From assembly GCA_964637775.1 (NCBI GenBank), contig CAZWWX010000005.1, positions 18,277 through 82,276 on the forward strand: a DNA stretch of 64,000 bases, in the 5' to 3' direction. The translations under genes and the position numbers were made by a program. Shown one piece after another: positions 6,293 through 60,020 of the stretch. Below the pieces are notes generated by a model. That model had not been told where the DNA came from, made no database searches, and worked only from the letters and a program-made list of their open reading frames with translations. Position 1 is the first letter of the stretch. The number at the start of each line of letters is the position of its first letter. This DNA is from an uncultured Bacillales bacterium (lineage in GTDB: Bacteria > Bacillota > Bacilli > Tepidibacillales > Tepidibacillaceae).

Positions 6293-6320
6293 CGGCTTCT
6301 CCCCCTATATCAAATTGCTC

Positions 6321-7109
6321 TTAGTCGAGCAGCTTTCCGCCTCCAATAATCGGCGGGAAATTAACCTCATCATAATTGACTACCTCATCCGCAGCTGGCT
6401 TCTGAAGTTTATTTGCAATACCTTCATTAATTTTCGTCAAATCGATCTCACCGCTAATCTGCAGTTGATCAGTGGAATCCTGTAGTGAAACACCTGCTTG
6501 AAAATTCAACTTGCGCAGATAATCATTTTTATCAAACACCAGCGTCGCGACAATCTCAGTCATTTCCGCAAACGGGCCAAAACCACTCATACGGTCCGTC
6601 CTAATCTCAATCGCTTCGTTCACTCTACCGGTTGCAAAACTGAACCCCTTTGTCTTCACGCGCACAACTTCGTCAGCACTAAGATTAGACACAGCGCCTA
6701 TCAGCCAGTCATAGAAACTTGTCTGCGACCCGGCATGGGCGGTGAACATTACATAGTCACGATTTAACTCCGGTATTTGTTCTTGCAATATTGCCGGAAC
6801 CTTAATATAGAGTTCACCATCTGTCACTAACATCGGAAAATCAACCAGCAAATTAACACCTTGCATAGTCGTAATAATCCGCACTTCGCTGTCAAGATAG
6901 AGCAGTCGCTGATCCAGCCTCCCTGTAAAAGAAAAAGTCGAATCCTCTGCCGGTGCGTTGAGCTTTCCGCTAAACTGCAGATCATTAATCGACTTGTTTT
7001 TAGTTAATGCTTGCTCCAAATAGTCATGCGCACTTATGCCACTGTTTCCACAGCCACTAACCGCCACTATTAGAACTATTATTAAAATAAGATAGATTAC
7101 ACGTTTCAT
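6321..7109 (-). CDS. hypothetical lipoprotein
   Basis: Lipobox signal MKRVIYLILIIVLIVAVSGCGNS. No family recognised. Confidence 0.65.
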   Translation of the reverse strand: MKRVIYLILIIVLIVAVSGCGNSGISAHDYLEQALTKNKSINDLQFSGKLNAPAEDSTFSFTGRLDQRLLYLDSEVRIITTMQGVNLLVDFPMLVTDGELYIKVPAILQEQIPELNRDYVMFTAHAGSQTSFYDWLIGAVSNLSADEVVRVKTKGFSFATGRVNEAIEIRTDRMSGFGPFAEMTEIVATLVFDKNDYLRKLNFQAGVSLQDSTDQLQISGEIDLTKINEGIANKLQKPAADEVVNYDEVNFPPIIGGGKLLD

Positions 7110-7180
7110 CAGAATCCTCTGCCTCTATAAAATCTTTCCTATTCTATTCTACACTTTTCTGTTATATTTTGCTTTAAAAA

Positions 7181-7954
7181 TTATAGTGTCTTTGCGAGTT
7201 CTTGCATAATCTCTTGTTTATACTGCATAAATTCCTCAGTAACCATCACTTCCGCAGCTCGTGGTCGCGGTAGATCGATTGTGAACTCCGCCACTACTCG
7301 TGCCGGTCGTGCCGAAAATAAATAGATTCGATCTGACAAATAGATTGCCTCATCGACACTATGCGTCACAAATAAGACCATTGACTTAAAGCGCTCCCAG
7401 ATTCCCAGCAACCATTGTTGCATCTGCATTCGCGTAATTTCATCCAATGCTGAGAATGGCTCATCAAGCAACAGCAACTCATTTTTCAACAAAAGTGTGC
7501 GGAGCAGAGCAGCACGCGACCGCATTCCACCCGAAAGCATGTGCGGAAATTGTTGCTCAAAACCCGACAGACCAAAGACGGCGAGATATTCGTTTGCCTT
7601 TTCTCTGCTCTCTTTTTTGCTGTATCCTTTGATTTCGAGACCGAGAATAATGTTATCAATTACCGTCCGCCACGGTAATAGATGATCTTGCTGCGGCATA
7701 TAGCTGATAACCCCTTTGCGGGCGATAATCGACTCTCCGTTTAATAAAATCTCTCCTGCGGAAGGCTGCTCAATGCCACTAATAATATTGAACAAGGTGC
7801 TCTTACCGGATCCGGACGGACCGATAATCGAAACGAATTCACCCGGATTAACAGTAAGCGAGATGTTATCCAGCGTATCAAAAGTACCACCGGTAACCAG
7901 CGGATAGACTTTGTCTAAATTATTAATAATCAGCCCATCATTGTTTTTTGTCAT
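7181..7954 (-). CDS. ABC transporter ATP-binding protein (NitT/TauT family, ThiZ-like)
   Basis: Walker A GPSGSGKST, signature LSGGMRSRAAL, Walker B LLLLDEPFSALD. Last gene of the TPP-riboswitch operon. Confidence 0.9.
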   Translation of the reverse strand: MTKNNDGLIINNLDKVYPLVTGGTFDTLDNISLTVNPGEFVSIIGPSGSGKSTLFNIISGIEQPSAGEILLNGESIIARKGVISYMPQQDHLLPWRTVIDNIILGLEIKGYSKKESREKANEYLAVFGLSGFEQQFPHMLSGGMRSRAALLRTLLLKNELLLLDEPFSALDEITRMQMQQWLLGIWERFKSMVLFVTHSVDEAIYLSDRIYLFSARPARVVAEFTIDLPRPRAAEVMVTEEFMQYKQEIMQELAKTL

Positions 7955-8054
7955 TAGACCTTACCTCGTCTCTCCTCAACTTCGCTACAGGCTTCCAATG
8001 TCACCACTGATTGCTCGCTTTATCATTCACCTAATCGCTCACTTAATTACTCGC

Positions 8055-9083
8055 TTAATCGCCGGCTCCCGGTAAAAATTGATTAGTAAACGCCTCTTCA
8101 ACCGGGAATAGCTTATCGATCAACTCATACTGATACATCCAATTGGTGTAGTTTTCCCAGACTTCTGCCTTTTGTATACCCCACACAGGTGCGTCATCCT
8201 GATATTTTTCACTCAACCACAATTGACTCTTCAACACTAAATCACGGTCCAATCCGGAAACGCTGTTCGTTAGAATCTCTGCAGACTCTGTTGGATTAGC
8301 AATTGCGTACTCATACCCCTTCGCTGTTGCCTCCATGAACTTGCTAACTAAATCCGGTTTGTCGGATATCATTTTGTCATTCGTTATAATCACCGGTGTA
8401 TAATAGTCCAGCTCTGGCGACAGTTCTCTCAACTCAATAAAGTTGATTGGATAATTACGAAGCTCAGCCTCAATGCCGGCCCAACCGTAGAAAATCCATT
8501 GGAAATCAATCTTGCCGCTCTCTGTCGCTGTAAAGAAATCTGCAGCGCCGGCGTTGATAAAGTTGACTTTGCTAAAATCTGCTCCTTCACTCATCATAAT
8601 TGACTGCATTACGGCTGTTTCCATCGGCGTACCCCAACCACCGTAGTTGCGACCTTCAAAGTCTTTAGAGGATGTTATGTTAAGACTAACAGGCGATGCA
8701 TACCCGGAAGTATTGTGCTGAATAATAGTGGCAATTGACACAACCGGAATTGATTGCGAGCGCGCATAAGTAACCTCTTCTTGGTAGCTGATACCGAATT
8801 CTGCTTTGCCGGAGGCAATTAGTTGCGGTGTACTGCCTTCGGAAGCTTGTATAATCTCTACCTTAAGACCTTGCTCTTCATAATAACCCTTTTTAAGTGC
8901 AACATAGAGTCCGGTGTGATTTGTGTTCGGCGTCCAGTCCAACATCACCGTAATTTTTTCCGGTCTGTCAGCAGTACAACCACCAAGCGGCATCAGTGCT
9001 AAACTAATAATTAATGCGAAAACAAGCACCATCAACACACTGCTCTTTGCAGTTTTTCTCATAACCTTTTTCTCATGATTCAT
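8055..9083 (-). CDS. ABC substrate-binding lipoprotein, NMT1/THI5 (ThiY-like) family
   Basis: KITVMLDWTPNTNHTGLYVALKKGYYEEQGLKVEI is the NMT1/THI5 signature. Lipobox LMPLGGC. GGAGAGGTG + 6 nt precedes ATG at 9083 (the ORF-track GTG at 9092 lies inside the SD). Confidence 0.88.
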   Translation of the reverse strand: MNHEKKVMRKTAKSSVLMVLVFALIISLALMPLGGCTADRPEKITVMLDWTPNTNHTGLYVALKKGYYEEQGLKVEIIQASEGSTPQLIASGKAEFGISYQEEVTYARSQSIPVVSIATIIQHNTSGYASPVSLNITSSKDFEGRNYGGWGTPMETAVMQSIMMSEGADFSKVNFINAGAADFFTATESGKIDFQWIFYGWAGIEAELRNYPINFIELRELSPELDYYTPVIITNDKMISDKPDLVSKFMEATAKGYEYAIANPTESAEILTNSVSGLDRDLVLKSQLWLSEKYQDDAPVWGIQKAEVWENYTNWMYQYELIDKLFPVEEAFTNQFLPGAGD

Positions 9084-10043: not shown

Positions 10044-10183
10044 TAAAAAAAGCTGACCCAAAGGTCAGCATACGTCTGTTACATATATCTACTAATGCTT
10101 CCCTCCGCTGGCATTACCCAGATCAGGTTAGTGGGTCGATTATTTTACAATATCCTCTCAGCCAAAATCAGCTCCCCAGCACT
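10044..10183 (-). promoter_or_regulatory. TPP (THI-box) riboswitch with terminator
   Basis: Minus strand: AGTGCTGGGGAGCTGATTTTGGCTGAGAGGATATTG..ACCCACTAACCTGATCTGGGTAATGCCAGCGGAGGGAAGC. CTGAGA and ACCTGATCTGGnTAATGCCAGCG are the conserved TPP elements. Downstream hairpin GCTGACC-tttg-GGTCAGC plus T7. Confidence 0.85.
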
Positions 10184-10248
10184 ATTAAGTTGTAGGTTTA
10201 TAATAACACTTTTCCCAGATAAGTCAAACTAAGTCGTACTTGCAAACG

Positions 10249-14443: not shown

Positions 14444-14518
14444 TGGAGCGGACGACGAGATTCGAACTCGCGACCCTCGCCTTGGCAAGGCGATGCTCTA
14501 CCACTGAGCCACGTCCGC
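14444..14518 (-). tRNA. tRNA-Gly (GCC)
   Basis: Hand-folded cloverleaf: GCGGACG/CGTCCGC acceptor, anticodon loop TTGCCAA, TTCGAATC T-loop, encoded CCA. Confidence 0.95.
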
Positions 14519-14527
14519 ATTGATAAT

Positions 14528-14603
14528 TGGTGGGTCATACAGGAATCGAACCTGTGACACCCTGATTAAAAGTCAGGTGCTCTACCGCCTGAGCTAATGA
14601 CCC
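14528..14603 (-). tRNA. tRNA-Lys (TTT)
   Basis: GGGTCAT/ATGACCC acceptor, anticodon loop CTTTTAA, TTCGATT T-loop, CCA. Confidence 0.95.
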
Positions 14604-14607
14604 AAAA

Positions 14608-14682
14608 TGGCTGGGCTATCTGGATTCGAACCAGAGAATGACGGAGTCAAAGTCCGTTGCCTTACCGCTTGGCTATAGCCCA
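14608..14682 (-). tRNA. tRNA-Gln (TTG)
   Basis: TGGGCTA/TAGCCCA acceptor, anticodon loop CTTTGAC, TTCGAAT T-loop, CCA. Confidence 0.95.
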
Positions 14683-14719
14683 TCAAGATTAACTGGTCGT
14701 GGATGAAAACACTTTTTAT

Positions 14720-14748
14720 ATTCTAGCATATATAAAATTATTTCTCAA
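14720..14748 (-). promoter_or_regulatory. candidate promoter for the Gln-Lys-Gly tRNA array
   Basis: Minus strand TTGAGA, 17 nt, (TGc)TAGAAT with extended -10, about 38 nt upstream of tRNA-Gln, just downstream of the PIN gene stop (14755-14757). Confidence 0.45.
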
Positions 14749-14754
14749 TATCGA

Positions 14755-15147
14755 TTATAAAGACATATATTTATCTATAAATTCAGATGGTGTCAGGATC
14801 TCTAAATTCGGAATAATTAATTCAGCAAAATCCTTATCACCTGTTATTAAAACGTCCACCTTAGCTGCGACCGCTGAAGCTATAATAGGTAAATCTTGTG
14901 GATCCCTTATACAAGGCACACCAGTTAAATCTACTGGGGTAGGAAAATATTCAAAAGATATTTCTGATATAAATATATCAAAAGCCTATAGATAGTTGGG
15001 TGTTTTCCTCCCAATCACTATTTTACTCTCCTCAATAACATAGGAACACAATACCAAACTTCGTGTTCCTATAATATGTTCGAGTAATTCAGCTAGTTTT
15101 GTACTATTAAAAATAAGTGCAGATAATAATACATTGGTATCAATCAT
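14755..15147 (-). pseudogene. PIN-domain toxin (TIGR00305-like VapC-type) interrupted by an in-frame TAG
   Basis: Own translation: MIDTNVLLSALIFNSTKLAELLEHIIGTRSLVLCSYVIEESKIVIGRKTPNYL*AFDIFISEISFEYFPTPVDLTGVPCIRDPQDLPIIASAVAAKVDVLITGDKDFAELIIPNLEILTPSEFIDKYMSL. TAG is at 14986-14988. ATG overlaps the antitoxin stop (ATGATTGA). Confidence 0.8.
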
Positions 15148-15415
15148 TATTCTCATTATTTTTAACCTGAAACTCTTTCCTAACTTCCTTAACTAAACTG
15201 ACTAATTCTTCCTCAGATTCTAAACCTAGTTCTTCTGCCAGCCTCTCAAAAGCTTTCCGTGCTTCGTAAATCGCGAACTTAGTAGGGTTCTCAATTACAA
15301 TCTTATTGCCATCTTTAACAAAAGCAACCTTATCACCTTCTTTTAAATTCAGCTGCTCCCGAATACGGATAGGTATTGTTATTTGTCCTTTAGAAGTTAT
15401 CTTAGCTAATTCCAT
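15140..15415 (-). CDS. AbrB/MazE/SpoVT-family antitoxin
   Basis: MELAKITSKGQITIPIRIREQLNLKEGDKVAFV is a SpoVT/AbrB swapped-hairpin domain, with an acidic C-terminal tail. Confidence 0.85.
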   Translation of the reverse strand: MELAKITSKGQITIPIRIREQLNLKEGDKVAFVKDGNKIVIENPTKFAIYEARKAFERLAEELGLESEEELVSLVKEVRKEFQVKNNENND

Positions 15416-15465
15416 TGCTCTAACCTCCTCGCTTATTCCTTTAATTCATAGTTTTCCTTACTTTC

Positions 15466-15494
15466 ATTATAGGCTGTTATGCTTATTAAAACAA
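15466..15494 (-). promoter_or_regulatory. candidate promoter of the AbrB-PIN cassette
   Basis: Minus strand TTGTTT, 17 nt, TATAAT, 50 nt upstream of the antitoxin ATG. Confidence 0.45.
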
Positions 15495-15500
15495 CCCTTA

Positions 15501-15533
15501 CAAAATAAAAACTCGCTATCAAAGGAGCGAGTT
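15501..15533 (-). terminator. rho-independent terminator of the upstream 7-tRNA array
   Basis: Minus strand AACTCGCT-cctttgat-AGCGAGTT followed by TTTTATTTTG, directly after tRNA-Thr(TGT). Confidence 0.7.
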
Positions 15534-15547
15534 ACATAGTAAAAAAC

Positions 15548-15623
<76 letters not shown>

Positions 15624-15682
15624 ACAAAAAAATAGGTTAACCGCATGTGGTGATATCCCGAAAACTTACCCAATAATACAAA

Positions 15683-15758
15683 TGGTGGACGATGACGGGA
15701 TCGAACCGCCGACCCCCTGCTTGTAAGGCAGGTGCTCTCCCAGCTGAGCTAATCGTCC
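15683..15758 (-). tRNA. tRNA-Val (TAC)
   Basis: GGACGAT/ATCGTCC acceptor, anticodon loop CTTACAA, TTCGATC T-loop, CCA. Confidence 0.95.
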
Positions 15759-15763
15759 ATAAC

Positions 15764-15838
15764 TGGTGACCCGTAGGGGACTCGAACCCCTGTTACCGCC
15801 GTGAAAGGGCGGTGTCTTAACCGCTTGACCAACGGGCC
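15764..15838 (-). tRNA. tRNA-Glu (TTC)
   Basis: GGCCCGT/ACGGGTC acceptor, anticodon loop CTTTCAC, TTCGAGT T-loop, CCA. Confidence 0.95.
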
Positions 15839-15852
15839 TAATTTAATTTATC

Positions 15853-15928
15853 TGGAGCTCCCAACCAGAATTGAACTGGTGACCTCTTCCTTACCATGGA
15901 AGCACTCTACCTACTGAGCTATGGGAGC
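15853..15928 (-). tRNA. tRNA-Thr (GGT)
   Basis: GCTCCCA/TGGGAGC acceptor, anticodon loop ATGGTAA, TTCAATT T-loop, CCA. Confidence 0.93.
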
Positions 15929-15929
15929 A

Positions 15930-16005
15930 TGGCTCCTCGTGCTGGACTCGAACCAGCGACAACTCGGTTAACAGCCGAGTGCTCTACCTGCTGAGCTAAC
16001 GAGGA
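15930..16005 (-). tRNA. tRNA-Asn (GTT)
   Basis: TCCTCGT/ACGAGGA acceptor, anticodon loop CTGTTAA, TTCGAGT T-loop, CCA. Confidence 0.95.
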
Positions 16006-16028
16006 AAGGTATTGTCATTTTAAAAATA

Positions 16029-16104
16029 TGGTGGAGCTAAGCGGGATCGAACCGCTGACCTCCTGCTTGCAAGGCAGGCGCTCTCCCAGCTGAGCTATAG
16101 CCCC
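16029..16104 (-). tRNA. tRNA-Ala (TGC)
   Basis: GGGGCTA acceptor with G3:U70, anticodon loop CTTGCAA, TTCGATC T-loop, CCA. Confidence 0.95.
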
Positions 16105-16205
16105 ATAATTGGGTAAATCTATTTAGTTATTTAAATCCCATACTTTGTTCCTATGTATCTTGTCGAATAATGTCGAACAACATATGAAACTAGCTGAAAT
16201 CTAAA

Positions 16206-16282
16206 TGGTGGGCCTAACAAGACTCGAACTTGTGACCTCACGCTTATCAGGCGTGCGCTCTAGCCAGCTGAGCTATAGGCCC
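16206..16282 (-). tRNA. tRNA-Ile (GAT)
   Basis: GGGCCTA/TAGGCCC acceptor, anticodon loop CTGATAA, TTCGAGT T-loop, CCA. Confidence 0.95.
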
Positions 16283-17212: not shown

Positions 17213-19408
17213 ATGCCTATCAAAAACGACAAAAAAGAACAGATCACCCTAAATATCGAGGGGATGACTTGTACAGCCTGCTCCACGCGAGTTGAGACTA
17301 ACCTCAACAAACTTGAGGGCGTAGAGGCTGCGGTCAACCTCAGCTTAAACAGCGCTAATATCAGCTACGATAAGGACCAAGTGTCTGCCGAACTTTTGAA
17401 GGAAACGATCAACAAACTGGGCTACCAGGTAGTTGAAAAATCTGCTGAGAACAGCGATCCCTATCTAATGCATGCCGAAGAGTTGAAGCGGATGAAGCGG
17501 CGGGTTATCCTGGCAATTATATTGGCCCTGCCTTTGTTGTGGAGTATGTTTGGCCATCTGGGTCTAAAAATTATCACTCCTGATATCCTGCTCAATCCTT
17601 GGTTTCAATGGGCGCTAGCGACACCGATTCAGTTCTATATCGGCTATGGTTTCTACAAAGGGTCCTATTTTTCGCTAAAAAACCGCTATGCTAACATGGA
17701 TGTGCTGGTAGCTCTGGGTACTTCGGCTGCCTATTTCTATAGTGTCTATAATGTTCTCGTTGGGAACGACCACCTCTATTTCGAGACGAGTGCGGTCCTG
17801 ATTACCCTAGTATTGCTTGGGAAATATCTCGAGGCCCTATCGAAACGTGAAACCTACACGGCTCTTGCTAAATTGTTTTCACTAAAGCCAGAGGTTGCCT
17901 ATATTGAGCGCGATGGCGGCTTCGTTGAGGTTGCAGTTTCTACTGTCCGAGTTGGCGACATCCTAACCGTGCGCCCAGGTGAACGCGTACCGCTCGATGG
18001 CACAATCATTACCGGTTTCTCGTCAATCGACGAATCGATGATTTCCGGCGAAAGCATACCGGTTGACAAAAACCTTGGTGACGAGGTTATTGGAGCAACG
18101 ATCAATAACTTCGGAACCTTTCAATTTAAGGTGACACGGATTGGCGAGGAAACCTTGCTTTCACAGATTATTAAATCGGTCGAAGAAGCGACCGCGACCA
18201 AACCGAACATTCAACGGATTGCTGACCGGATTTCGAATATTTTCGTGCCGACGGTGATTGCACTCTCTATCCTGACGTTTATCGCCCACTATTTTATATT
18301 TTCGGCGGGCGACTTTGCGCGGTCTCTGCTAGTTGCGATTTCCGTTCTCGTCATCTCCTGCCCTTGTGCGCTTGGCCTCGCGACCCCGACTTCGATCATG
18401 GTCGGTACGGGTAAAGCGGCTGAAAACGGCATCCTCTTTAAGTCCGGCGAGTACATCGAGAATGCTAATAAAATTTCGGCGATAGTTTTTGACAAAACCG
18501 GCACCCTCACCAAGGGCCAGCCGGAACTAACCGATTACCGGCTAATTAATGGCGATGAGCAGGAACTCTTGAAGGCAATCCTCTCAATTGAAAGCTACTC
18601 GGAACACCCGATTGGACAGGCTGTTGCCCGCGGTATTGTGGCGATGGGGCTGACGGCGGATCCAGTGAGTGACTTTGCTGTATTGCCGGGCCGGGGAGTT
18701 AAAGCTTCGTATGGAGGTCAAGTTTATCAGATTGGAACCCGGCGCCTGCTGGATGACCTGGGTGTTGATTACAGGAGTCTTGAGGCGGAGGCTATGGCCT
18801 TAGAAGATCAAGGGAAAACTGTGTTCTTCGTGGCTGCGCAAGCTATTAATGGGATTGTGGCGGTCGCTGATACGGTGAAGGAAGATTCGCTGGCGGCGGT
18901 AAAAAGGCTGCAAGATGCTGGAATCGAACTCTACATGTTGACCGGTGATAATCAGCGGACTGCTGAGCAGATAGGTAAGCAGGTTGGAATCACCAATGTG
19001 ATAGCGGAAGTATTGCCGCAGGGCAAGGTTGACGCGATTAAGCGCCTGCAAAGTGAAGGCCACTACGTGGCGATGGTCGGCGATGGAATTAATGATGCGC
19101 CAGCCCTGATTGCAGCCGATGTCGGTATCGCGATTGGAACGGGAACTGATATAGCGATTGAGGCGTCGGATATTACTTTGCTGCGGGAGAGTATATCGGG
19201 AGTACCGGCTGCGATCACTGTGAGTCGGAAAACTTTGCGGAATATTAAGCAGAACTTATTCGCCTCTCTTTTCTACAATTCGCTGGGTATCCCACTAGCA
19301 ATGATTGGCCTCTTATCACCGATAATCGCGGGTATCGCGATGTCTCTCAGCTCAGTGTCAGTGGTCTTGAATGCGCTACGCTTGAAACGGATCAAGATTG
19401 ATGAATAA
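17213..19408 (+). CDS. copA: copper-translocating P1B-type ATPase
   Basis: N-terminal HMA GMTCTACSTRVE, TGES, transmembrane CPC (SCPCALGLATPT), DKTGTLT, GDGINDAP. Confidence 0.95.
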   Translation: MPIKNDKKEQITLNIEGMTCTACSTRVETNLNKLEGVEAAVNLSLNSANISYDKDQVSAELLKETINKLGYQVVEKSAENSDPYLMHAEELKRMKRRVILAIILALPLLWSMFGHLGLKIITPDILLNPWFQWALATPIQFYIGYGFYKGSYFSLKNRYANMDVLVALGTSAAYFYSVYNVLVGNDHLYFETSAVLITLVLLGKYLEALSKRETYTALAKLFSLKPEVAYIERDGGFVEVAVSTVRVGDILTVRPGERVPLDGTIITGFSSIDESMISGESIPVDKNLGDEVIGATINNFGTFQFKVTRIGEETLLSQIIKSVEEATATKPNIQRIADRISNIFVPTVIALSILTFIAHYFIFSAGDFARSLLVAISVLVISCPCALGLATPTSIMVGTGKAAENGILFKSGEYIENANKISAIVFDKTGTLTKGQPELTDYRLINGDEQELLKAILSIESYSEHPIGQAVARGIVAMGLTADPVSDFAVLPGRGVKASYGGQVYQIGTRRLLDDLGVDYRSLEAEAMALEDQGKTVFFVAAQAINGIVAVADTVKEDSLAAVKRLQDAGIELYMLTGDNQRTAEQIGKQVGITNVIAEVLPQGKVDAIKRLQSEGHYVAMVGDGINDAPALIAADVGIAIGTGTDIAIEASDITLLRESISGVPAAITVSRKTLRNIKQNLFASLFYNSLGIPLAMIGLLSPIIAGIAMSLSSVSVVLNALRLKRIKIDE

Positions 19409-19482
19409 ATGAGGTAGGGTTAGTTTTAAATCAGCAGATATTATATAATGAGTGTGACTGAAAGAGACGAGGAGGAGTTAGA

Positions 19483-19692
19483 ATGAGAACAAAACTGTAT
19501 GTTGGAAACATGTCATGCAGCCATTGCGAGGCAGCGATTAGCGAGGCGCTTGCGAAGCTTGATGGTGTTAGTGAATTCGCAATTGACTTAGAGAACAAGA
19601 TTGTTGAAGTCGAATTCGATAGCGCGGTTGTTACACTGAGCGGTATCATCACAGCAATTAATGAGCTTGGATATGATGTGGAGATAGTATAG
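19483..19692 (+). CDS. copZ: copper chaperone CopZ (HMA domain)
   Basis: 69 aa with MSCSHCEAAISEAL metal-binding motif, directly after copA. Confidence 0.9.
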   Translation: MRTKLYVGNMSCSHCEAAISEALAKLDGVSEFAIDLENKIVEVEFDSAVVTLSGIITAINELGYDVEIV

Positions 19693-19715
19693 AAGTAACC
19701 ACTGGCTAAAAAAAG

Positions 19716-19746
19716 AAAACGGGACATTTACATGTCCCGTTTGTTA
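19716..19746. terminator. bidirectional terminator between copZ and the DUF2075 gene
   Basis: ACGGGACAT-ttac-ATGTCCCGT with an A-run on the left and TTTGTT on the right. The stop codon of the minus-strand gene lies in the loop. Confidence 0.65.
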
Positions 19747-21431
19747 TTGTAATTATTTTTTAATATAAACTGTTCAAGATAATTCTTAAGATGCTGATTA
19801 CAAACATATACATATGTACCTTTTATTGCACGTGACATTAGAACCGTATAAATATTGATTATATATCTTTCCAACTCCTCGTTTGATTCTACTCCTTGTT
19901 TTCCTTTTTTATCAAAATATTTCCTCTTATCAATCTGTATTCTTTTGGTTATAGGATCATAAAAAATATCTTCTCCAATAATTACACCTGCATAATTTAA
20001 ATCGTATCCTTGTATTGTATGTATGCTACCGATTTCATGGATTGACTTCTTATTAATAGCCCAGCCTGCTAGGTTAGTATTCCAAATCATTTTTTCATCT
20101 TCAATTTCAATATCATAAAGATCTCGATTAACTGCTTCCTGGTAAGTCAAGTCTTTGGTCTTCCAGGGCCAAGCATATCCAGCAACTATTCGTGAAAGAC
20201 CAAAACTATTGTTTTTACTAATGATTTCTTCTTTCATTGCTTTAATCGAATCAAACAATTTAAAATCGTAATCCTCAAATACAATTCTCTGTTCAGGTGG
20301 ATTATTACTAAAAATATCCTTAATATATTTTAGATAATCCGCCCCTCCCTTGACTCTAAGTTGTGACCTAATTTGATATTTTTCAAAATTAGGCATGTTC
20401 TTAAGTGCCATAAAATCTTTTTCCCTTATATCTGACGGTCTAACCGATTGTAAGCTATCATAGAAAAATATTTGATGATCTGATTGGTTAATTATCCATG
20501 CTAATTGAGTTGCCTCTCTCTTTAAACTTAATTGTTTATTTGCATCATCAAAAGAGCCATAATTAGTTATAGATTTTCTTCTATGTAATCTATGTGCTTC
20601 ATCTACAATTAACAAATCATATTTTTCTTTCACAACATCATTAGGTCCAATAATCATATTAGATTTAAGTCCGTCTATATTCTTCATAACTTGTTTTAAG
20701 GTTTTGCGGAGTGAAGTCATTGGCACTACAAGACCAATCTTATATTCGCTTAACCTTTCATGTACATCCTTAAATTTATTAAACAACTCCTCATTTTCCT
20801 TAGAAATAAATTCCACCACTTTATTATCTGCAAACAATTTCATTAAATACATTGCCAATATAGTCTTCCCCGTACCAGCCTCTCCATTTACTATTTTAGT
20901 TGAGCATTTACCTTTTGAGACCATAAGTACGATATCTAATAATATGTCATGTATAACTGAGTATTGTTCTTCTGTAAGTCTTTTATATGGAGTATATTTA
21001 AACAATTCAGTATTGATAATATCTTCAAGTTCTTGTAAAACGACATTCTTACTATGTAATTCTTCCCAAATATTTTCAAATAATCTTTCATAGTTTTTCT
21101 TCTCATAATAATTATGATTACGCATACCACTATTACTATTTAAGATTCTATATTTTTTATCAGCTGACATATATTCAATCAGTTTAGATTCAATATCTAA
21201 AACAGCAGATTTATTAAATTCCTCATGGGCTATAATGTTGATTTTTGTAAGTTTTGCACGATCGTCAGTCTTTAGATGTTGTTTCATTCTATTAGTAATG
21301 CTTGTAGTCTCACCAATATAAGCCTCTCTATTGTCGTTTAATATGTATACAACAGGCCAGTTCTCGCCATACCATACATTTGATATATTTACAGCGACAT
21401 CTAAATTAAAGTCTCTCTCAGTAATAATCAT
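19728..21431 (-). CDS. GIY-YIG nuclease-like N-terminus fused to a DUF2075 (Schlafen-group-3-like SF1 helicase/ATPase) domain
   Basis: N-terminus WPVVYILNDNREAYIGETTSITNRMKQHL (GIY-YIG-like), Walker A NGEAGTGKT, Walker B LLIVDEAHRL, C-terminus IHTIQGYDLNYAGVIIG..YTVLMSRAIKGTYVYV. ATG is 1 nt after the MazG stop. Confidence 0.85.
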   Translation of the reverse strand: MIITERDFNLDVAVNISNVWYGENWPVVYILNDNREAYIGETTSITNRMKQHLKTDDRAKLTKINIIAHEEFNKSAVLDIESKLIEYMSADKKYRILNSNSGMRNHNYYEKKNYERLFENIWEELHSKNVVLQELEDIINTELFKYTPYKRLTEEQYSVIHDILLDIVLMVSKGKCSTKIVNGEAGTGKTILAMYLMKLFADNKVVEFISKENEELFNKFKDVHERLSEYKIGLVVPMTSLRKTLKQVMKNIDGLKSNMIIGPNDVVKEKYDLLIVDEAHRLHRRKSITNYGSFDDANKQLSLKREATQLAWIINQSDHQIFFYDSLQSVRPSDIREKDFMALKNMPNFEKYQIRSQLRVKGGADYLKYIKDIFSNNPPEQRIVFEDYDFKLFDSIKAMKEEIISKNNSFGLSRIVAGYAWPWKTKDLTYQEAVNRDLYDIEIEDEKMIWNTNLAGWAINKKSIHEIGSIHTIQGYDLNYAGVIIGEDIFYDPITKRIQIDKRKYFDKKGKQGVESNEELERYIINIYTVLMSRAIKGTYVYVCNQHLKNYLEQFILKNNYNNKRDM

Positions 21432-21432
21432 T

Positions 21433-21747
21433 TTATAGCTCCGTGTATTTTTTACTACTTCCTTTTACTTTATCTACCTCATATCGGGATTCATTCTTAT
21501 CAATCTTTTTATGGGCAACTTCAACTAAATCCATTCCCAGTTTTTCTGCTAACATTACTGTGTATAAAAAAACATCTGCTATCTCATCCTCAACTTTCTC
21601 TTGTTTAAAATTATTGTCCCATTGGAAATTTTCTAATAATTCTGCAGATTCAATTACTATTGACTTCGCCAAGTTTTCAGGAGAATGAAATTGACCCCAG
21701 TCTCTTTCCCTATTAAATTTATTTACTCTTTCAACTATTTCTTTCAT
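21433..21747 (-). CDS. MazG-like nucleotide pyrophosphohydrolase (small all-alpha NTP-PPase)
   Basis: FNRERDWGQFHSPENLAKSIVIESAELLENFQW..EIADVFLYTVMLAEKLGMDL, i.e. the EExxE..D metal-binding pattern of the MazG/dCTPase-like family. Confidence 0.85.
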   Translation of the reverse strand: MKEIVERVNKFNRERDWGQFHSPENLAKSIVIESAELLENFQWDNNFKQEKVEDEIADVFLYTVMLAEKLGMDLVEVAHKKIDKNESRYEVDKVKGSSKKYTEL

Positions 21748-21850
21748 CGCTTAGATCTCCTTGATTAAAGTAATAATTTGTAATTTTTATACTTATTTTA
21801 TCATAAAAATTAACTTATGTAGTCCAACTTATTAATAAATGATAAATATA

Positions 21851-21870
21851 GGGGACACTCCCGTGTCCCC
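21851..21870. terminator. GC-rich hairpin GGGGACAC-tccc-GTGTCCCC (terminator-like)
   Basis: Perfect 8-bp stem followed by TTTGTT on plus and TATATTT on minus. Lies between the mazF stop and the MazG-like gene promoter region. An additional AT hairpin ATATCAAG-ttat-CTTGATAT is at 21913-21932. Confidence 0.5.
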
Positions 21871-21941
21871 TTTGTTGCTTGCGTCCTTCACACTAAAAAA
21901 ACTTTATAAATTAATATCAAGTTATCTTGATATTACATTAA

Positions 21942-22328
21942 TCATTGGGTCAACAACATTTCATAAATCGCACTAAACACTATATTACACTTTGTAAGCA
22001 CCTCTTTCGGTGCCTTTTCTACAAATACAAATCTACGTTCACTTAAATCAAGAACTTTGGCCTGATCTATTAAAATATCACCTTTGGTTTTGAGATTGAA
22101 GGAATCAATATTTACTCTTGTAAAAAAATCTCTAACGGTGCTCGTGACTGGAACAACAGTCACTAACCCATTCAGTTCCAGCTGAGTAATTGGATCTGAT
22201 ATGACAAGTCCCGGTCTATAACCTTGCTGTTCATGACCTGTTGAAGGTGAAAAACTAACTTTAATTATATCTCCAAACTCTAGATTAATGTAATTTTCTT
22301 TATACCCATCCGAAGGTCTCTTTACCAT
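21942..22328 (-). CDS. mazF: MazF/PemK-family endoribonuclease toxin
   Basis: GDIIKVSFSPSTGHEQQGYRPGLVISD..VVPVTST..DQAKVLD is typical PemK/MazF. ATG overlaps the mazE stop (ATGGTAA). Confidence 0.88.
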   Translation of the reverse strand: MVKRPSDGYKENYINLEFGDIIKVSFSPSTGHEQQGYRPGLVISDPITQLELNGLVTVVPVTSTVRDFFTRVNIDSFNLKTKGDILIDQAKVLDLSERRFVFVEKAPKEVLTKCNIVFSAIYEMLLTQ

Positions 22329-22579
22329 ATTTCTTTACCAACCGGTTCACCCCAATCAATATGATCCTTAGGGTTATATTGTTTATTAGTAGCCTGCTCA
22401 GCTAAAATTTGAAATTTAGTTTTGTTCTGTTGCTTAGTTAACAATAATTTATCCCCTTCAACGCTCATCTCAAAAATTACATCCCCAATGTTGGTACTAT
22501 CAACATTTAATTTATCTAGTATCATTTTGGGTATGCGAATAGCAGCACTATTCCCCCACTTAACTAAATTTACTGTCAT
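22322..22579 (-). CDS. mazE: MazE/AbrB-family antitoxin
   Basis: MTVNLVKWGNSAAIRIPKMILDKLNV SpoVT/AbrB domain. AAGAGGTG + 6 nt precedes ATG at 22579 (the ORF-track GTG at 22588 is in the SD). Confidence 0.88.
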   Translation of the reverse strand: MTVNLVKWGNSAAIRIPKMILDKLNVDSTNIGDVIFEMSVEGDKLLLTKQQNKTKFQILAEQATNKQYNPKDHIDWGEPVGKEIW

Positions 22580-22634
22580 TGAAAACACCTCTTACATTCT
22601 AAATATATATCTTACTTATAGTATATACATGTGT

Positions 22635-24122
22635 CTACATTCCGTCAACTACTTCCCGCAGTTTCTCCCACAGCCTTACCATCGCAAAAGTATCCAGATG
22701 ACAGTACGCCAGCAGCGATTTCCTATGTGCCTCAAGCTCTTCCTCGCTCATCTCAGCCATTCTGCTAAATAATGCTGATGCTTCCAGACCATTATGAACT
22801 CCTTCCAGCTGACTATAATCAAGACCAGGATCACCGGGGAATAGGGCTGGCAACACATATTTAATAGAATACGAGCCTTTCATAGCTTTCGTGTAATAAT
22901 AGTGCTTCTGAAAAGGAATCATTAAATCTTGCATATTATCATGCATATTCATTAGATGGTCTTCGTATTCTGGAAAAGCCTGAGCAAGTTTTTTTATTAC
23001 ACCTTTTTCAAAACCCATATTATATGCCAACACGCAGACATCGCGTGGTATATCTGCACATAACTTTGTTACCAGACCAATTCGCGGATCGACTCCCGGA
23101 TAAGCCAAGTACTCTTCATGATGTAACTGTCCACCCTCTTCTTCGATGTAATGCAAAGAGTACTGAAAGGCAATCTGCTGATAGGGACTAGAGTTGTCGT
23201 AGAGCGGGATGGCTGGCTGAATAGATTCGAAATCCAGGAAATACATCGGGTAATACAATTTATTAAGTACTCCCCTAATCTCTGGCTTGTTAATGTACGT
23301 TTCCGGATTATATAGCTCATACTCGACCTGACGATGTTGCTTGTCCTTCAGCTGGTTACTCGCGTAGAGGTCATCAAAAGAAATAATCCCCTGGTCATAG
23401 AAAGCTAGCTTATTAGGCCTCCACAACCCAGCTACATTAAACACGTTGGGCTTAGGCAAGTCAGCCGTGCAGTAAGCGAAGAATCCGCAGCCATAGGGAA
23501 TGAAGCAATAGTCACCAATATCATCAGGCGGCTCATTAGCCATCCCCAGATATGAGCTAATATTGGCAAGATGTCTTTCAACCACAGGAACCAGGCTCTG
23601 AACATCTCCTGTTACATCCACGATCTTAAACAGCTGCTCTAAATCCAGGTCGCCATAGCGCACATATTCGTTGTTAATATATACGACATGTACTTTGCTA
23701 ACCTCATAGCCCAGCTTAGTAAGCACATAGTATTGGTAGGCAGCGTCATCATAGTATATATCTTTTATTTCCGTAGAACTCTTAACCTCGTAAATTTCTA
23801 ATTCCCGGTTACCTAAGTTTCTAAGTATATCCACTCGACAGAGCAGGCCATTATAATCAAAGGTCGCCTCTGTAATAATCTCTACATTATTAGAAATCTT
23901 TTCGCTGGTATCGTCTATCATTGCTTCCGCATCGTTCCATGGGATTTCGCTGTACTCGCCGAATAAACCCTTTGCCAGGTTACCAACTTCGAGACCGACC
24001 TCTAAGATATTCTGATTCGTGACCGATTCATCATATTCGTCTGGGCGAAAACGTTTTAACCAGAGCATTTTCGGGCACTGGACTCCCAGGACATAATCGG
24101 ATTTAGTTAATCGTAGTGACAT
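22635..24122 (-). CDS. DUF2779 protein: Cas4/RecB-like PD-(D/E)xK nuclease N-domain plus RNase-H-fold C-domain
   Basis: LTKSDYVLGVQCPKMLWLKRF N-terminus typical of DUF2779. RVDIL..LEIYEVKSS (D..ExK). Cys pattern C16 plus CFIPYGCGFFAYC resembles the Cas4/AddB Fe-S staple. C-domain has YFLDFES and CHLDTFAM. Confidence 0.8.
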   Translation of the reverse strand: MSLRLTKSDYVLGVQCPKMLWLKRFRPDEYDESVTNQNILEVGLEVGNLAKGLFGEYSEIPWNDAEAMIDDTSEKISNNVEIITEATFDYNGLLCRVDILRNLGNRELEIYEVKSSTEIKDIYYDDAAYQYYVLTKLGYEVSKVHVVYINNEYVRYGDLDLEQLFKIVDVTGDVQSLVPVVERHLANISSYLGMANEPPDDIGDYCFIPYGCGFFAYCTADLPKPNVFNVAGLWRPNKLAFYDQGIISFDDLYASNQLKDKQHRQVEYELYNPETYINKPEIRGVLNKLYYPMYFLDFESIQPAIPLYDNSSPYQQIAFQYSLHYIEEEGGQLHHEEYLAYPGVDPRIGLVTKLCADIPRDVCVLAYNMGFEKGVIKKLAQAFPEYEDHLMNMHDNMQDLMIPFQKHYYYTKAMKGSYSIKYVLPALFPGDPGLDYSQLEGVHNGLEASALFSRMAEMSEEELEAHRKSLLAYCHLDTFAMVRLWEKLREVVDGM

Positions 24123-24167
24123 AGGCTCTGCCTCCTTTATTCTTATTATACGCTATTAAAAATAAAA

Positions 24168-25106
24168 TTATATTTTCATCAAATTCATGATCAAGTTAAC
24201 CAATAAATCTTTTTCGGTCGGATCCGAAACAGCCAACATTATTGTTAGAGCTACTAATGTCTTGTTATCAATTACTTGGGTATCTTGTTTAAACAAGGCA
24301 TCGTTTTTATCTAAAAAATATACAAATAAGGCAGCAGCAATTCTTTTATTTCCATCGGCAAAACCATGGTTTTTTACTAAAAAATATAACAGCTGTGCAG
24401 CTTTTTCTTCCAAAGTTGGATACAACTCTTGACCTTCAAAGGTTTGATAAATAGCGTTGATACTTGATTTAAATTCCCCGCCTCGTTCAACCCCGAACAC
24501 ATCCGTTTCGTAATCAGCTTTCATGGATTGAATAATATCAATACATTCAGCATACGATAATACATGAGAAGTTTTTGTCCCACTTGGCCTCTTAATTTTT
24601 TTATGATCATAATCATCCAATAATTGTAGCGCTAAAGTATAACTTTCCAATACAGATAAAACCTGAGAAGCTTCTAGCTGATTACTGGATCTTTCTATAA
24701 TTTTAATCAGCTGAAGCTGCTCCTTATAAGAAATTTTATTGATGTTAAAGGCATATCCTTTAATCGCGTAATCTCTTAGTACGGAAGTTGCCCATTTCCT
24801 AAACGTAATGCCTCTCTTAGAATTAACACGATAACCAACCGCTAATATTACATCTAAATTATAATACATCGGAGGTCTTGAGGATTTATTTTCACTTCTG
24901 TCGAATATTTCGACAGAAGTATCTTTATCAAGTTCTCCATTTTTGAAAATATTCGTAATATGATAAGATATCGAAGACCTTGCTGTTTCAAAAAGAACCG
25001 ACATCTGTTCTTGTGTTAACCATACCGTATCAGCTTCTGGGCTTACATTTACCTCAATCGTAAACTTCTCATCATTAAAAACAATTATCTCATTTATATT
25101 TTCCAT
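24168..25106 (-). CDS. RhuM-family N-domain fused to a Fic/Doc toxin domain
   Basis: N-terminus DTVWLTQEQMSVLFETARSSISYHITNIFKNGELD..YYNLDVILAVGYRVNSKRGITFRKWAT (RhuM). C-terminus HGFADGNKRIAAALF is the Doc-type HxFx(D/N)(A/G)NKR motif. Confidence 0.85.
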   Translation of the reverse strand: MENINEIIVFNDEKFTIEVNVSPEADTVWLTQEQMSVLFETARSSISYHITNIFKNGELDKDTSVEIFDRSENKSSRPPMYYNLDVILAVGYRVNSKRGITFRKWATSVLRDYAIKGYAFNINKISYKEQLQLIKIIERSSNQLEASQVLSVLESYTLALQLLDDYDHKKIKRPSGTKTSHVLSYAECIDIIQSMKADYETDVFGVERGGEFKSSINAIYQTFEGQELYPTLEEKAAQLLYFLVKNHGFADGNKRIAAALFVYFLDKNDALFKQDTQVIDNKTLVALTIMLAVSDPTEKDLLVNLIMNLMKI

Positions 25107-25203
25107 CGCACTTGCTCCTTACCACTAATTCAAAAATTAAACATAAACTCCTACACATAAGGTTCATACATTAAGTATATACTTGTACCTTAATTGGTAC
25201 AAC

Positions 25204-25231
25204 AAAAGGGGACACAATCGTGTACCCTTTT
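25204..25231. terminator. orphan terminator-like hairpin in the divergent RhuM-Doc / Fic intergenic region
   Basis: AAAAGGGGACAC-aatc-GTGTACCCTTTT (one mismatch) with T-runs on both strands. Near-copy of the 21851 hairpin. Confidence 0.4.
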
Positions 25232-25418
25232 ATTCCTATTATACACTATTTCTCCAACATCTAAACTGTAAATCTCAGCCAAATAATAATCATCCAAGGA
25301 ATGTCACAAGTCGCTAAATTTAATTTGCCAATTTTAAGTTTCTATAGTATATTTAACATATAATTAATTAGAGGAAGTGAAACTCATTTCATTTCCTCTA
25401 ATAAGAGGATGAGGAAAT

Positions 25419-26609
25419 ATGAAAAACCCATGGTATAGTCTTGAATATGAAACCATTCCCTGGACAAGCAACGTTGACATGTCCTATTTATCACGACAAT
25501 CGAAAAGAAAAATATTAGATACCTATGAATCGTCCATACCGGATACAATAGCTGATAAATCTCTAACACTGCCATCGCAACTGGAGGCTCGAGTATCCGA
25601 TCTCTTAATTAATATGTCACGTTTCGATATGGCTCAATCACAAAAGGGCTACAGCTTCCCCACACTTCTACTGCGGAGCGAGTCTGCGGCCAGTTCTCAG
25701 ATCGAGAATTTAACCTCCGGGATTAGAAATATTTCGCTAGCCGAATTAACTGATAAAGTACCGAAAAATGCACAGTTAATTGCAGGAAATGTTCACGCTA
25801 TGCGGGAGGCCCTTAATATTGAGGAGCCAATCAGCTATTCAACAATTCTTGAAATCCACCGAATGTTAATGATAGATGTTTATGGAGAATTAGCTGGAAC
25901 TATCAGACAACAGACCGTATGGATTGGCGGCACATCTTTATCTCCACACGGAGCAACCTTTGTGCCACCGCACTTTTCAAGAATTGATGATTATCTACAA
26001 GACCTCATTAAGTACGCCGGTAGAATAGATATAAATCCGCTAGTAAAGGCAGCAATACTTCACGCACAGTTTGAAATTATCCACCCGTTTATTGATGGTA
26101 ACGGCAGGACAGGCAGAGTCCTTATCCATAAATCACTTAGAGATGACGGTGTTTTGAAAACAGTAGCCCTACCCATATCGGCCGGATTACTCAACAATAC
26201 CAGCGACTATATGAAAGCCCTTATGGAATTCCAGAAGGGTGATCCAATCCCCATCATAGAGCAATTAATTGGAGCGATTGAAACGTCCCTACTCATCGGC
26301 GACATTGTGTCAGATGAAATCTCAGTAATCCAGTATAAGTGGTTAAGCAGAATTAATGAGCGAAAGAGTTCATCTATCTACAGACTAGTTAATATTTTAT
26401 TAGAACAACCAGTAATCAACTCTAACTATTTATCACACAAACTTGATATTACGCCTAGGGCTGCCAATCAACTCATTGAAAGAGCTATTGGCTATGGAAT
26501 ACTCAGTCGATTTGGTTCAGAAAAACGCGGTATTTTCTATCAGTCAAACGATATCATTGAGATTATGAACCGGGTTTCAAGCAATGAGATAATAAAAAGA
26601 AATTTATAA
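25419..26609 (+). CDS. Fic-family protein (AMPylase-type) with N-terminal inhibitory helix and C-terminal wHTH-like region
   Basis: Canonical HPFIDGNGRTGRVLIH. N-terminal SSQIEN fits the (S/T)xxxE(G/N) auto-inhibition motif. Confidence 0.88.
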   Translation: MKNPWYSLEYETIPWTSNVDMSYLSRQSKRKILDTYESSIPDTIADKSLTLPSQLEARVSDLLINMSRFDMAQSQKGYSFPTLLLRSESAASSQIENLTSGIRNISLAELTDKVPKNAQLIAGNVHAMREALNIEEPISYSTILEIHRMLMIDVYGELAGTIRQQTVWIGGTSLSPHGATFVPPHFSRIDDYLQDLIKYAGRIDINPLVKAAILHAQFEIIHPFIDGNGRTGRVLIHKSLRDDGVLKTVALPISAGLLNNTSDYMKALMEFQKGDPIPIIEQLIGAIETSLLIGDIVSDEISVIQYKWLSRINERKSSSIYRLVNILLEQPVINSNYLSHKLDITPRAANQLIERAIGYGILSRFGSEKRGIFYQSNDIIEIMNRVSSNEIIKRNL

Positions 26610-26615
26610 GATAAC

Positions 26616-26644
26616 AAAAACCACTGTATGAACAGTGGTTTTTG
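26616..26644. terminator. bidirectional terminator (Fic gene / rpsI)
   Basis: AAAAACCACTG-tatgaa-CAGTGGTTTTT. Confidence 0.7.
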
Positions 26645-26663
26645 TATATATCGTAAAAATATA

Positions 26664-27056
26664 TTAACGTTTTGAGAATTGTGGTGCACGACGAGCGCCT
26701 TTAAGTCCGTATTTCTTACGCTCTTTCATTCTTGCGTCACGTGTTAAAAATCCAGCAGATTTTAGAGTTCCACGATAGTCGCCTTCAGTTTTTAGTAGCG
26801 CACGAGAGATCCCGTGTCTGATCGCGCCCGCTTGTCCGGTTGAGCCTCCACCCTTTGCACTAACCAGTACATCATAGGTTCCTAGAGTACCTGTCGCTAC
26901 AAGAGGTTGTTTAACAATCAACTTAAGAGTTTCCATATCGAAATATTCGTCGATGTCACGTTTATTAATAATGATTTTTCCATCGCCCGGTACTAAACGA
27001 ACACGCGCTACTGAGCTTTTACGTCTGCCGGTGCCATAAAATTGTATCTGTGCCAA
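26664..27056 (-). CDS. rpsI: 30S ribosomal protein S9
   Basis: [44 protein letters not shown]. Confidence 0.97.
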
Positions 27057-59868: not shown

Positions 59869-59900
59869 CCTTACACCTCCTCCTTATTACTCCGCGTAAA

Positions 59901-60020
59901 CAAAAAACACCTTCGCAAACATACGAAAGTGTTATATCCCGAAGAATATCTGCACCTCGGTAGGAAATTAAGCCCTGTGGCACCTACTGTCTACGGTAAT
60001 AATTTATTTAATTTAGCAAA
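59901..60020 (-). promoter_or_regulatory. ribosomal protein L10 leader (autoregulatory 5' UTR with attenuator hairpin)
   Basis: Minus strand CCGTAGACAGTAGGTGCCACAGGGCTTAATTTCCTACCGAGGTGCAG, then AACACTTTCG-tatgttt-GCGAAGGTGTT + TTTTTG before the rplJ SD. Position and architecture match the Firmicute L10 leader; I could not run a covariance model. Confidence 0.55.

Follow-up and report, generated by a model that had tools for sequence, protein, structure and literature searches.

What does it mean that a small MazG-like pyrophosphohydrolase gene and a large nuclease-helicase gene lie end to end in bacterial DNA? The question is raised by a locus of an uncultured Bacillales bacterium of the family Tepidibacillaceae (NCBI GenBank assembly GCA_964637775.1, contig CAZWWX010000005.1), in which we analysed a window of 64,000 nucleotides (nt), that is, the whole stretch from position 18,277 to 82,276 of the forward strand, whose first letter is position 1 in the coordinates used below. 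An earlier note, made from the letters of this DNA alone, had proposed that the two genes, one for a MazG-like protein and the other for a GIY-YIG/DUF2075 helicase, form a candidate two-gene nucleic-acid immunity module. Following this up, we find a self-contained, horizontally mobile two-gene operon, and we lean, with moderate confidence, towards its being most likely an anti-phage or anti-mobile-DNA nuclease-helicase system like the staphylococcal Nhi, and probably a two-gene immune system that has not been described before.

The first gene of the pair (21433-21747, minus strand) encodes the 104-amino-acid (aa) MazG-like protein and the second (19728-21431, minus strand) the 567-aa GIY-YIG/DUF2075 protein, both as given in the list of open reading frames (ORFs). 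A Shine-Dalgarno sequence, AAGGAG, can be read on the same strand at 21757-21762, 9 nt 5' of the MazG start codon (ATG, from 21747), and a coupling junction (21432-21442, minus strand) connects the two genes: a GGAG (21439-21442) within the 3' end of the MazG coding sequence lies 7 nt before the helicase ATG (21431-21429), and the MazG stop codon (TAA, 21433-21435) is separated from that ATG by a single spacer nucleotide (21432), the minus strand reading ...GAG CTA TAA A ATG ATT.... This is exactly the arrangement that the earlier note had described, with the TAA at 21435-21433 and 1 nt before the next start codon. The unit is bounded by intrinsic terminators. Downstream, a terminator with an 11-bp stem and a T-run (19717-19742, minus strand), two-sided and common to the convergent copZ, holds the helicase stop codon (19728-19730) in its loop; upstream, the terminator of the preceding mazEF operon (21850-21871, minus strand) follows just after mazF and delimits the two genes on their 5' side. 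Terminator-like hairpins in the scanned region number six, against 0.9 expected from shuffles. With terminators on both sides, the MazG and helicase genes make up a bicistronic unit of their own, which, given the mazEF terminator, must have its own promoter within 21748-21849; a sigma-70 promoter scan of the locus did no better than shuffles and no promoter was called. The GC content of the operon, 29-31% as opposed to 41-53% in its flanks (copA and the ribosomal-protein region; window positions 19000-27000), is strongly atypical and suggests recent horizontal acquisition.

The architecture that the earlier note had assigned to the larger protein, a GIY-YIG nuclease followed by a DUF2075 helicase, is upheld, and the three peptides that it quoted are all present in the 567-aa sequence: VVYILNDNREAYIGETTSITNRMKQHL at aa 27-53, the Walker A motif GEAGTGKT at aa 183-190 (20862-20885, minus strand) and the Walker B motif LLIVDEAHRL at aa 273-282 (20586-20615, minus strand). 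The helicase core (19800-20894, minus strand; aa 180-544) matches PF09848 (SLFN-g3_helicase/DUF2075) at 1.6e-65, an alignment that spans positions 5-353 of the 354 in the model. The GIY-YIG domain (21117-21359, minus strand; aa ~25-105), located by PF01541 and profile matches, has a PF01541 score of 22.4 bits on the full-length protein, just below the cut-off of 22.6, and 25.4 bits, above it, on the N-terminus alone. The same family is matched in all 21 of 21 diverse N-termini of relatives (best 2.5e-8), and a profile of the N-terminal domain finds the GIY-YIG structures of T4 EndoII (0.0066), UvrC (about 0.08) and I-TevI (0.098). An AlphaFold2 model of the protein (predicted local distance difference test score, pLDDT, 81; predicted template modelling score, pTM, 0.80) has as its nearest PDB folds in Foldseek the superfamily 1B (SF1B) helicases RecD2, UPF1, Dda, Pif1 and Dna2, with SLFN14 lower in the list; the model also has unassigned helical segments at aa 100-175 and a low-confidence insert at aa 413-479. 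The protein has 7576 homologue clusters at E<=1e-5. It is thus, as predicted from these matches, a GIY-YIG nuclease fused to a DUF2075/Schlafen (SLFN)-group-3 SF1B helicase. Across 72 sequences, the putative GIY-YIG catalytic residues Y29, Y38, G40, R48, H52, E81, N98 and N100 are invariant, save for Y29 (71/72), as are the helicase residues K189, D277, E278, Q328, R359, R414 and R534.

The identity of the smaller protein, called MazG-like in the earlier note, holds as well. It matches PF12643 (MazG-like) at 8.3e-18 (64.9 bits, cut-off 27) and MazG PF03819 at 1.3e-6, and, beyond these, a phage pyrophosphatase PHROG (3.5e-16) and, in the PDB, mouse and human DCTPP1/RS21-C6 (4e-16) and an archaeal pyrophosphatase (4qgp, 5.5e-16). 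The alignment with RS21-C6 brings out the common motifs RDWxQFH, ExxELxExFQW and ExxD, and 72 paired homologues show no variation in the metal ligands E33, E36, E39, E55 and D58, nor in W17, H21 and K81. By these matches the 104-aa protein is a predicted all-alpha (deoxy)nucleoside triphosphate ((d)NTP) pyrophosphohydrolase of the DCTPP1/RS21-C6 type, and it almost certainly works as such on (d)NTPs, with the likeness to DCTPP1 indicating pyrimidine or non-canonical deoxynucleoside triphosphates (dNTPs) as candidate substrates. With their catalytic residues invariant, both proteins look catalytically competent across the family.

The proposal depends on the two genes occurring together beyond this genome. 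In a scan of 185,579 species genomes, one genome per species, relatives of the helicase occur in at least 593, and the best 80 of these species-level relatives, 41-67% identical to the window protein, were surveyed as loci (labelled L and a number), with MazG located in each by TBLASTN with the window MazG protein. The hosts of these 80 loci come from Bacillota, Bacteroidota, Patescibacteria, Actinomycetota, Gammaproteobacteria, Bdellovibrionota and the DPANN and Methanomassiliicoccales archaea, and the closest helicase relatives among the matches listed are from metagenome-assembled genomes of Erysipelotrichaceae. MazG is found directly upstream on the same strand in 71 of the 80 loci, upstream with one inserted gene in two (L012, L013) and divergently oriented in two (L011, L058), which amounts to a co-occurrence of ~94% among close helicase relatives. 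Of the five loci with no MazG, one is a contig end without room for it (L077) and another holds a split, decaying helicase (L053). Of the 71 adjacent pairs, 69 have a stop-to-start gap in the range of -14 to +22 nt, with overlaps of -4 (ATGA) in 14 and of -1 in 8, and these tight or overlapping junctions support the translational coupling and co-expression that the earlier note had deduced from the 1-nt spacing in the window. An all-vs-all BLASTP comparison of the ORFs of at least 80 aa from the 80 loci returns only two conserved genes (in 78 and 72 loci) and no third conserved component, the next cluster extending to only 6 loci; since no other gene is conserved, the contexts are independent and the unit consists strictly of two genes.

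Chance adjacency of two unrelated genes, for which nothing beyond the single window speaks, was rejected on the strength of these 71 independent loci, and we accord fortuitous adjacency next to no probability. The upstream mazEF genes were likewise considered as part of the unit, by comparison with mazEFG of Escherichia coli, and set aside, with a terminator standing between them and the pair and MazEF not conserved elsewhere. Two individual loci show departures of their own: in L053 the helicase is spread over two ORFs (5920-7650) with no MazG, apparently a decaying copy, and in L001 a second, convergent copy of MazG (3745-4059) lies downstream of the pair.

The pair is also carried on plasmids. 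Matches to the helicase occur in 106 plasmid records, 70 of them from Bacillus, and matches to MazG in 100 (74 from Bacillus), at coordinates that agree with those of the helicase; among them are megaplasmids of the Bacillus cereus group, whose helicases are 32-35% identical to that of the window. In two annotated examples a 'nucleotide pyrophosphohydrolase' is followed by a 'DUF2075 domain-containing protein', with HNH endonucleases and a zeta toxin adjoining, and the pair was found on archaeal and Hymenobacter plasmids too. Phage genomes, by contrast, hardly contain it: a relative is present in only 4 of 50,697 phage records and in 6 IMG/VR contigs, mostly at contig ends. An origin in phages, or a role as a phage replication cassette, was excluded by this rarity, and we find such a cassette as hard to credit as the fortuitous adjacency above.

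Seen from the MazG side, the association is looser and at the same time broader. In a survey of 80 metagenomic loci, 70 of which have room downstream, MazG is followed directly by a GIY-YIG-type helicase in 12 of the 70, is accompanied by a DUF2075 gene in another arrangement in 25 and has no DUF2075 gene in 33, so that a DUF2075 gene accompanies MazG in 37-40 of about 70 loci. The other arrangements include loci with the helicase upstream of MazG and loci in which DUF2075 carries a different N-terminus of ~270 aa with a PD-(D/E)xK-like motif (RVDF...VELKQW) and a helicase core 30% identical to that of the window (4e-39). Such PD-(D/E)xK-like-DUF2075 genes follow MazG in L100 (4325-6301) and in L093 of Petrocella atlantisensis (6333-8663), and the L100 variant has weak matches to the PADLOC models of Nhi (1.9e-15), AbiO and PDC-S41. 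As MazG pairs with two nuclease heads and in both gene orders, its link is to the helicase core. The Petrocella gene is itself followed by Macro and ADP-ribosylglycohydrolase genes. At L092 (6001-6315) and L094 (6001-6318), lone MazG-like genes (62-65% identity) show translational coupling with the gene that precedes them, which encodes a methyl-accepting chemotaxis protein, and no DUF2075 gene was found near either. Together with the ~94% among close helicase relatives, the Bacillus megaplasmids and this second nuclease architecture show that MazG and DUF2075 genes do co-occur well beyond the window.

The neighbourhood of the pair supports a defence context. In the window, the operon is part of an island of ~7 kb, an insertion with rpsI on one side and copZ/copA on the other. 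A mazE/mazF (PemK) pair (21942-22588, minus strand) immediately precedes the MazG-like gene, and beyond it come genes for a DUF2779 protein whose N-terminus is Cas4-like (22635-24122, minus strand), a RhuM and Fic/DOC fusion that corresponds to the PADLOC candidate system PDC-S23 (24168-25106, minus strand; 7e-117) and a divergent SoFic homologue (25419-26609, plus strand; 1e-64). Elsewhere, a tally of 129 immediate neighbours of the pair is headed by DUF3427/type IV methyl-directed restriction endonucleases (4) and Fic/SoFic proteins (4), followed by phospholipase D (PLD) with ResIII (3), PbeA (3), type I restriction endonucleases (3), DpnI (2) and a second DUF2075 protein, PDC-S41 (2), with NERD, HNH and PtuA also represented. 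Besides the one in the window, clear islands are seen at L012 and L007: in L012 (2349-10147) the order is HaeIII restriction-modification (R-M), MazG, a 376-aa Hypoth_Ymh protein (PF09509), helicase and a PARIS-like AAA_15 plus DUF4435 pair; in L007 the pair is followed, after a few hundred bases, by a Cas9-Cas1-Cas2 locus. In L086-L091 a Fic protein and a KAP NTPase precede the pair, the whole being inserted between core genes.

Several observations weigh against an immune role. Clearly defence-type genes make up ~15% of the neighbours, in what is a qualitative tally without a matched background control. Lone MazG homologues exist, at 62-65% identity and with no helicase, and we found no alignment columns that separate paired from stand-alone MazG, so that the partner looks like an ordinary house-cleaning enzyme and a role in repair or sanitation also fits; the four or five of the 80 helicase loci without MazG, in turn, indicate that some hosts may do without it. 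Mirror-tree comparison of helicase and MazG gives a correlation that is only moderate (Pearson 0.50) and is for this reason not used as evidence of a complex, so that any physical association of the two proteins is conjectural. Finally, the pair has no full-length match to any system in PADLOC 2.0, where the partial ones are to AbiO (3.3e-8, 30.7 bits, aa 140-408 against model positions 168-371 of 468), PDC-S14 (4e-9) and PDC-S41 (4e-6).

This ordinary look of the MazG makes accessory repair or sanitation the main alternative: MazG would clear a damaged or modified pyrimidine dNTP and the GIY-YIG helicase would excise the same lesion from DNA, by UvrC-like incision with a UvrD-like motor and in a logic akin to that of MutT/MutM/MutY, with no part in the response to phages. 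DCTPP1, according to PMC13510388, is a sanitiser of cytosine-derived triphosphates, GIY-YIG is the fold of UvrC incision, lone and paired MazG are indistinguishable, and the pair is present in the reduced genomes of Candidate Phyla Radiation (CPR) bacteria and DPANN archaea. A repair function sits badly, however, with the patchy distribution over at least 593 of 185,579 species genomes, the unrelated flanks in every lineage, the carriage on megaplasmids, the strongly atypical GC content and the restriction, PARIS-like, Cas9 and Fic neighbours, and the pair has no conserved SOS or repair genes in its vicinity. We regard it as unlikely, if worth serious attention.

The MazEF, zeta and Fic toxins beside the pair and its location on megaplasmids also bring to mind a toxin-antitoxin (TA) or addiction pair, in which the nuclease-helicase would be the toxin and the upstream MazG would neutralise it, stabilising the island or plasmid. 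The small gene comes first and the junction overlaps or abuts, as in type II TA operons, and one Nhi homologue is toxic on induction. Yet type II antitoxins are non-enzymatic and always accompany their toxins, whereas the MazG catalytic residues are invariant, lone MazG enzymes (62-65% identity) exist without a helicase, helicases exist without MazG, and reversed and divergent gene orders occur; an addiction function thus strikes us as very improbable.

In the immune reading that we prefer, both proteins would be made together from one transcript. By analogy with Nhi, the SF1B DUF2075 motor would load on invader DNA or on replication intermediates of the invader and translocate along it with ATP, and the N-terminal GIY-YIG domain would nick or cut that DNA. 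MazG would hydrolyse dNTPs to the corresponding monophosphates and pyrophosphate, with cytosine-type or non-canonical dNTPs as the likeliest substrates, and its effect would be either to withhold precursors from the phage or to prevent phage-type or degradation-derived nucleotides from entering host DNA; pool alteration and a safeguard were also the two options raised in the earlier note, and either may apply. The defence activity as such, and the invader as its target, we infer from context and from the comparison with Nhi. Precedents are the DUF2075 defence proteins Nhi, Nhi-like and AbiO, the MutT genes beside SauUSI homologues and the MazG-like effector domains of some PUA-HAD systems, all taken up below.

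A more specific alternative is type IV-like restriction combined with protection of the nucleotide pool, in which the nuclease-helicase would attack DNA with modified pyrimidines and MazG would destroy the matching dNTPs (such as 5-methyl- or 5-hydroxymethyl-dCTP, and 5-hydroxymethyl-dUTP, hmdUTP), with the consequence that host DNA would never be marked and the phage would be starved of its special precursor. The sequence matches to solved structures of DCTPP1/RS21-C6, with the aligned pocket aromatics W17, W43 and Y62 kept, are consistent with this, as is the activity of DCTPP1 on 5-methyl-dCTP (PMC4491611). Modification-dependent enzymes are among the commonest neighbours of the pair (DUF3427, 4; DpnI, 2), DUF2075 NTPases have been noted beside modification-dependent enzymes of the McaZI group (Nucleic Acids Research survey, 2019), and genes for the pyrophosphohydrolase MutT adjoin homologues of the restriction protein SauUSI (Bell et al., 2020, PMC7641849). 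On the other hand, type IV restriction joins a reader domain to a nuclease, and Pfam at E<=0.01 detects no modified-base reader in the 567-aa protein (SRA, EVE, PUA, DUF3427, McrB N-terminal or GmrSD), the helical segments at aa 100-175 and the low-confidence insert at aa 413-479 being left over as unassigned; C5-methyltransferases and HaeIII R-M stand beside some copies, which is awkward for a nuclease directed at 5-methylcytosine; and substrate specificity is not readable from sequence. We consider this alternative distinctly unlikely. A comparably slim chance goes to what may be called 'pool-and-polymer' immunity against phages with non-canonical pyrimidines, in which MazG would destroy phage-specific dNTPs such as 5-hydroxymethyl- or 5-methyl-dCTP and hmdUTP, and the GIY-YIG/SF1B motor the phage DNA: MazG would stall or un-modify phage replication and bar phage bases from host DNA, and the co-translated motor would attack the exposed or stalled phage DNA. 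If true, this would be a host-side mirror of the dCTPase, dUTPase and MazZ strategies of phages.

A nuclease-helicase immune function of the pair would matter beyond this locus. The DUF2075/Schlafen-type motor already links bacterial immunity (Nhi, AbiO) with the human SLFN restriction factors; to this would be added a widespread GIY-YIG version, found in at least 593 species genomes and ~7,500 protein clusters, CPR bacteria and DPANN archaea included, together with a conserved enzymatic partner from the family of human DCTPP1, so that attack on foreign DNA and manipulation of the dNTP pool would be coupled in one operon. The pairing of MazG with two nuclease heads further suggests a general rule for this helicase family, one overlooked by single-gene annotations such as Nhi, Nhi-like and PDC-S41. 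Cultured strains of Bacillus thuringiensis, B. cereus and B. mycoides have plasmids with the pair, one example being H175_RS30570 and H175_RS30565 (WP_080546736.1 and WP_000947885.1) on pIS56-233 of B. thuringiensis IS5056, and this makes it directly testable.

Elsewhere in the window, an array of 11 tRNA genes (14447-16282) is broken by a gene for an AbrB/MazE-type antitoxin (15140-15415, minus strand) and a truncated 56-aa PIN-domain ORF (14986-15156, minus strand), which together look like a decayed VapBC-like TA pair; the window contains no rRNA. A TPP riboswitch (10082-10188) and a ribosomal protein L10 leader (59893-60014), both at the level of the Rfam gathering threshold, are unrelated to the MazG-helicase pair.

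Among known systems, the closest comparison is with Nhi of Staphylococcus epidermidis (SERP2475), which limits the accumulation of phage DNA and depends for immunity on its nuclease as well as its helicase activity (Bari et al., bioRxiv 10.1101/776245). Like the window protein, Nhi begins with a nuclease that is joined to an SF1B helicase overlapping DUF2075, and both are sporadic, horizontally spread and found near defence genes. The earlier note had named Nhi as a single-protein defence of this helicase family, and that much stands, as its helicase motifs do overlap DUF2075 and it is encoded by a single gene; the kinship does not extend to the nuclease, which in Nhi is an HsdR-like PD-(D/E)xK domain and in the window protein a GIY-YIG domain, and the window protein has no match to the PADLOC Nhi model at E<=0.01. 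With a different predicted nuclease fold and no match to the model, it is not a member of Nhi. Moreover, Nhi is sufficient as a single gene, protecting from phages by degrading their replication intermediates, whereas the window-type helicase has a conserved MazG partner, which argues for a two-gene unit. The same difference sets it apart from Nhi-like (Millman et al., 2022) and the lactococcal AbiO, single defence proteins that contain DUF2075, neither of which is described with a MazG partner. PADLOC, NCBIfam and PHROGs assign the helicase to no named system. The earlier note had also recognised no described system with such a MazG partner, and this agrees with our searches: no description of the MazG-DUF2075 pair, nor any treatment of DUF2075 together with MazG, was found in open-access text, and there is no full-length match in PADLOC 2.0, a release of 2023, so that newer databases may by now include the pair.

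On the side of the small partner, DCTPP1 has in common with the window MazG the all-alpha MazG-like fold, the ExxE...ExxD metal site and the RDWxQFH and FQW motifs, and differs in that it serves eukaryotes as a housekeeping sanitiser, has a longer C-terminus and lacks a nuclease-helicase partner. In the relA-mazEFG arrangement of E. coli, MazG follows mazE and mazF. The window resembles it in having mazE and mazF ahead of a co-oriented MazG-type gene; however, the window MazG is a 104-aa PF12643 protein and that of E. coli a tandem of PF03819 domains, and a terminator splits the window genes into two units. Nucleotide depletion as a means of defence is exemplified by dCTP deaminase and dGTPase, with which the pair shares an enzyme that is predicted here to act on the dNTP pool. 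In the PUA-Calcineurin-CE-HAD systems, a MazG-like domain is predicted to replace the dNTP-depleting effector in some variants (bioRxiv 10.64898/2026.01.15.699771); there the partners are a PUA sensor and HAD, while the window MazG is without a regulatory domain and has a nuclease-helicase as its partner. The MazG system of DefensePredictor, a MazG with a MazG-C kinase, is different again. SauUSI with its adjoining MutT gene parallels the window pair in that its nuclease-helicase, a restriction protein, adjoins a small nucleotide pyrophosphohydrolase, although with a PLD nuclease, a superfamily 2 helicase, a DUF3427 reader and a Nudix hydrolase it has no part homologous to it. The PD-(D/E)xK-like-DUF2075 variants, likewise undescribed as a pair, have the same MazG family upstream and another N-terminal domain, and fusions of DUF2075 to GIY-YIG or to PD-(D/E)xK are both on record in the Nucleic Acids Research survey of 2019.

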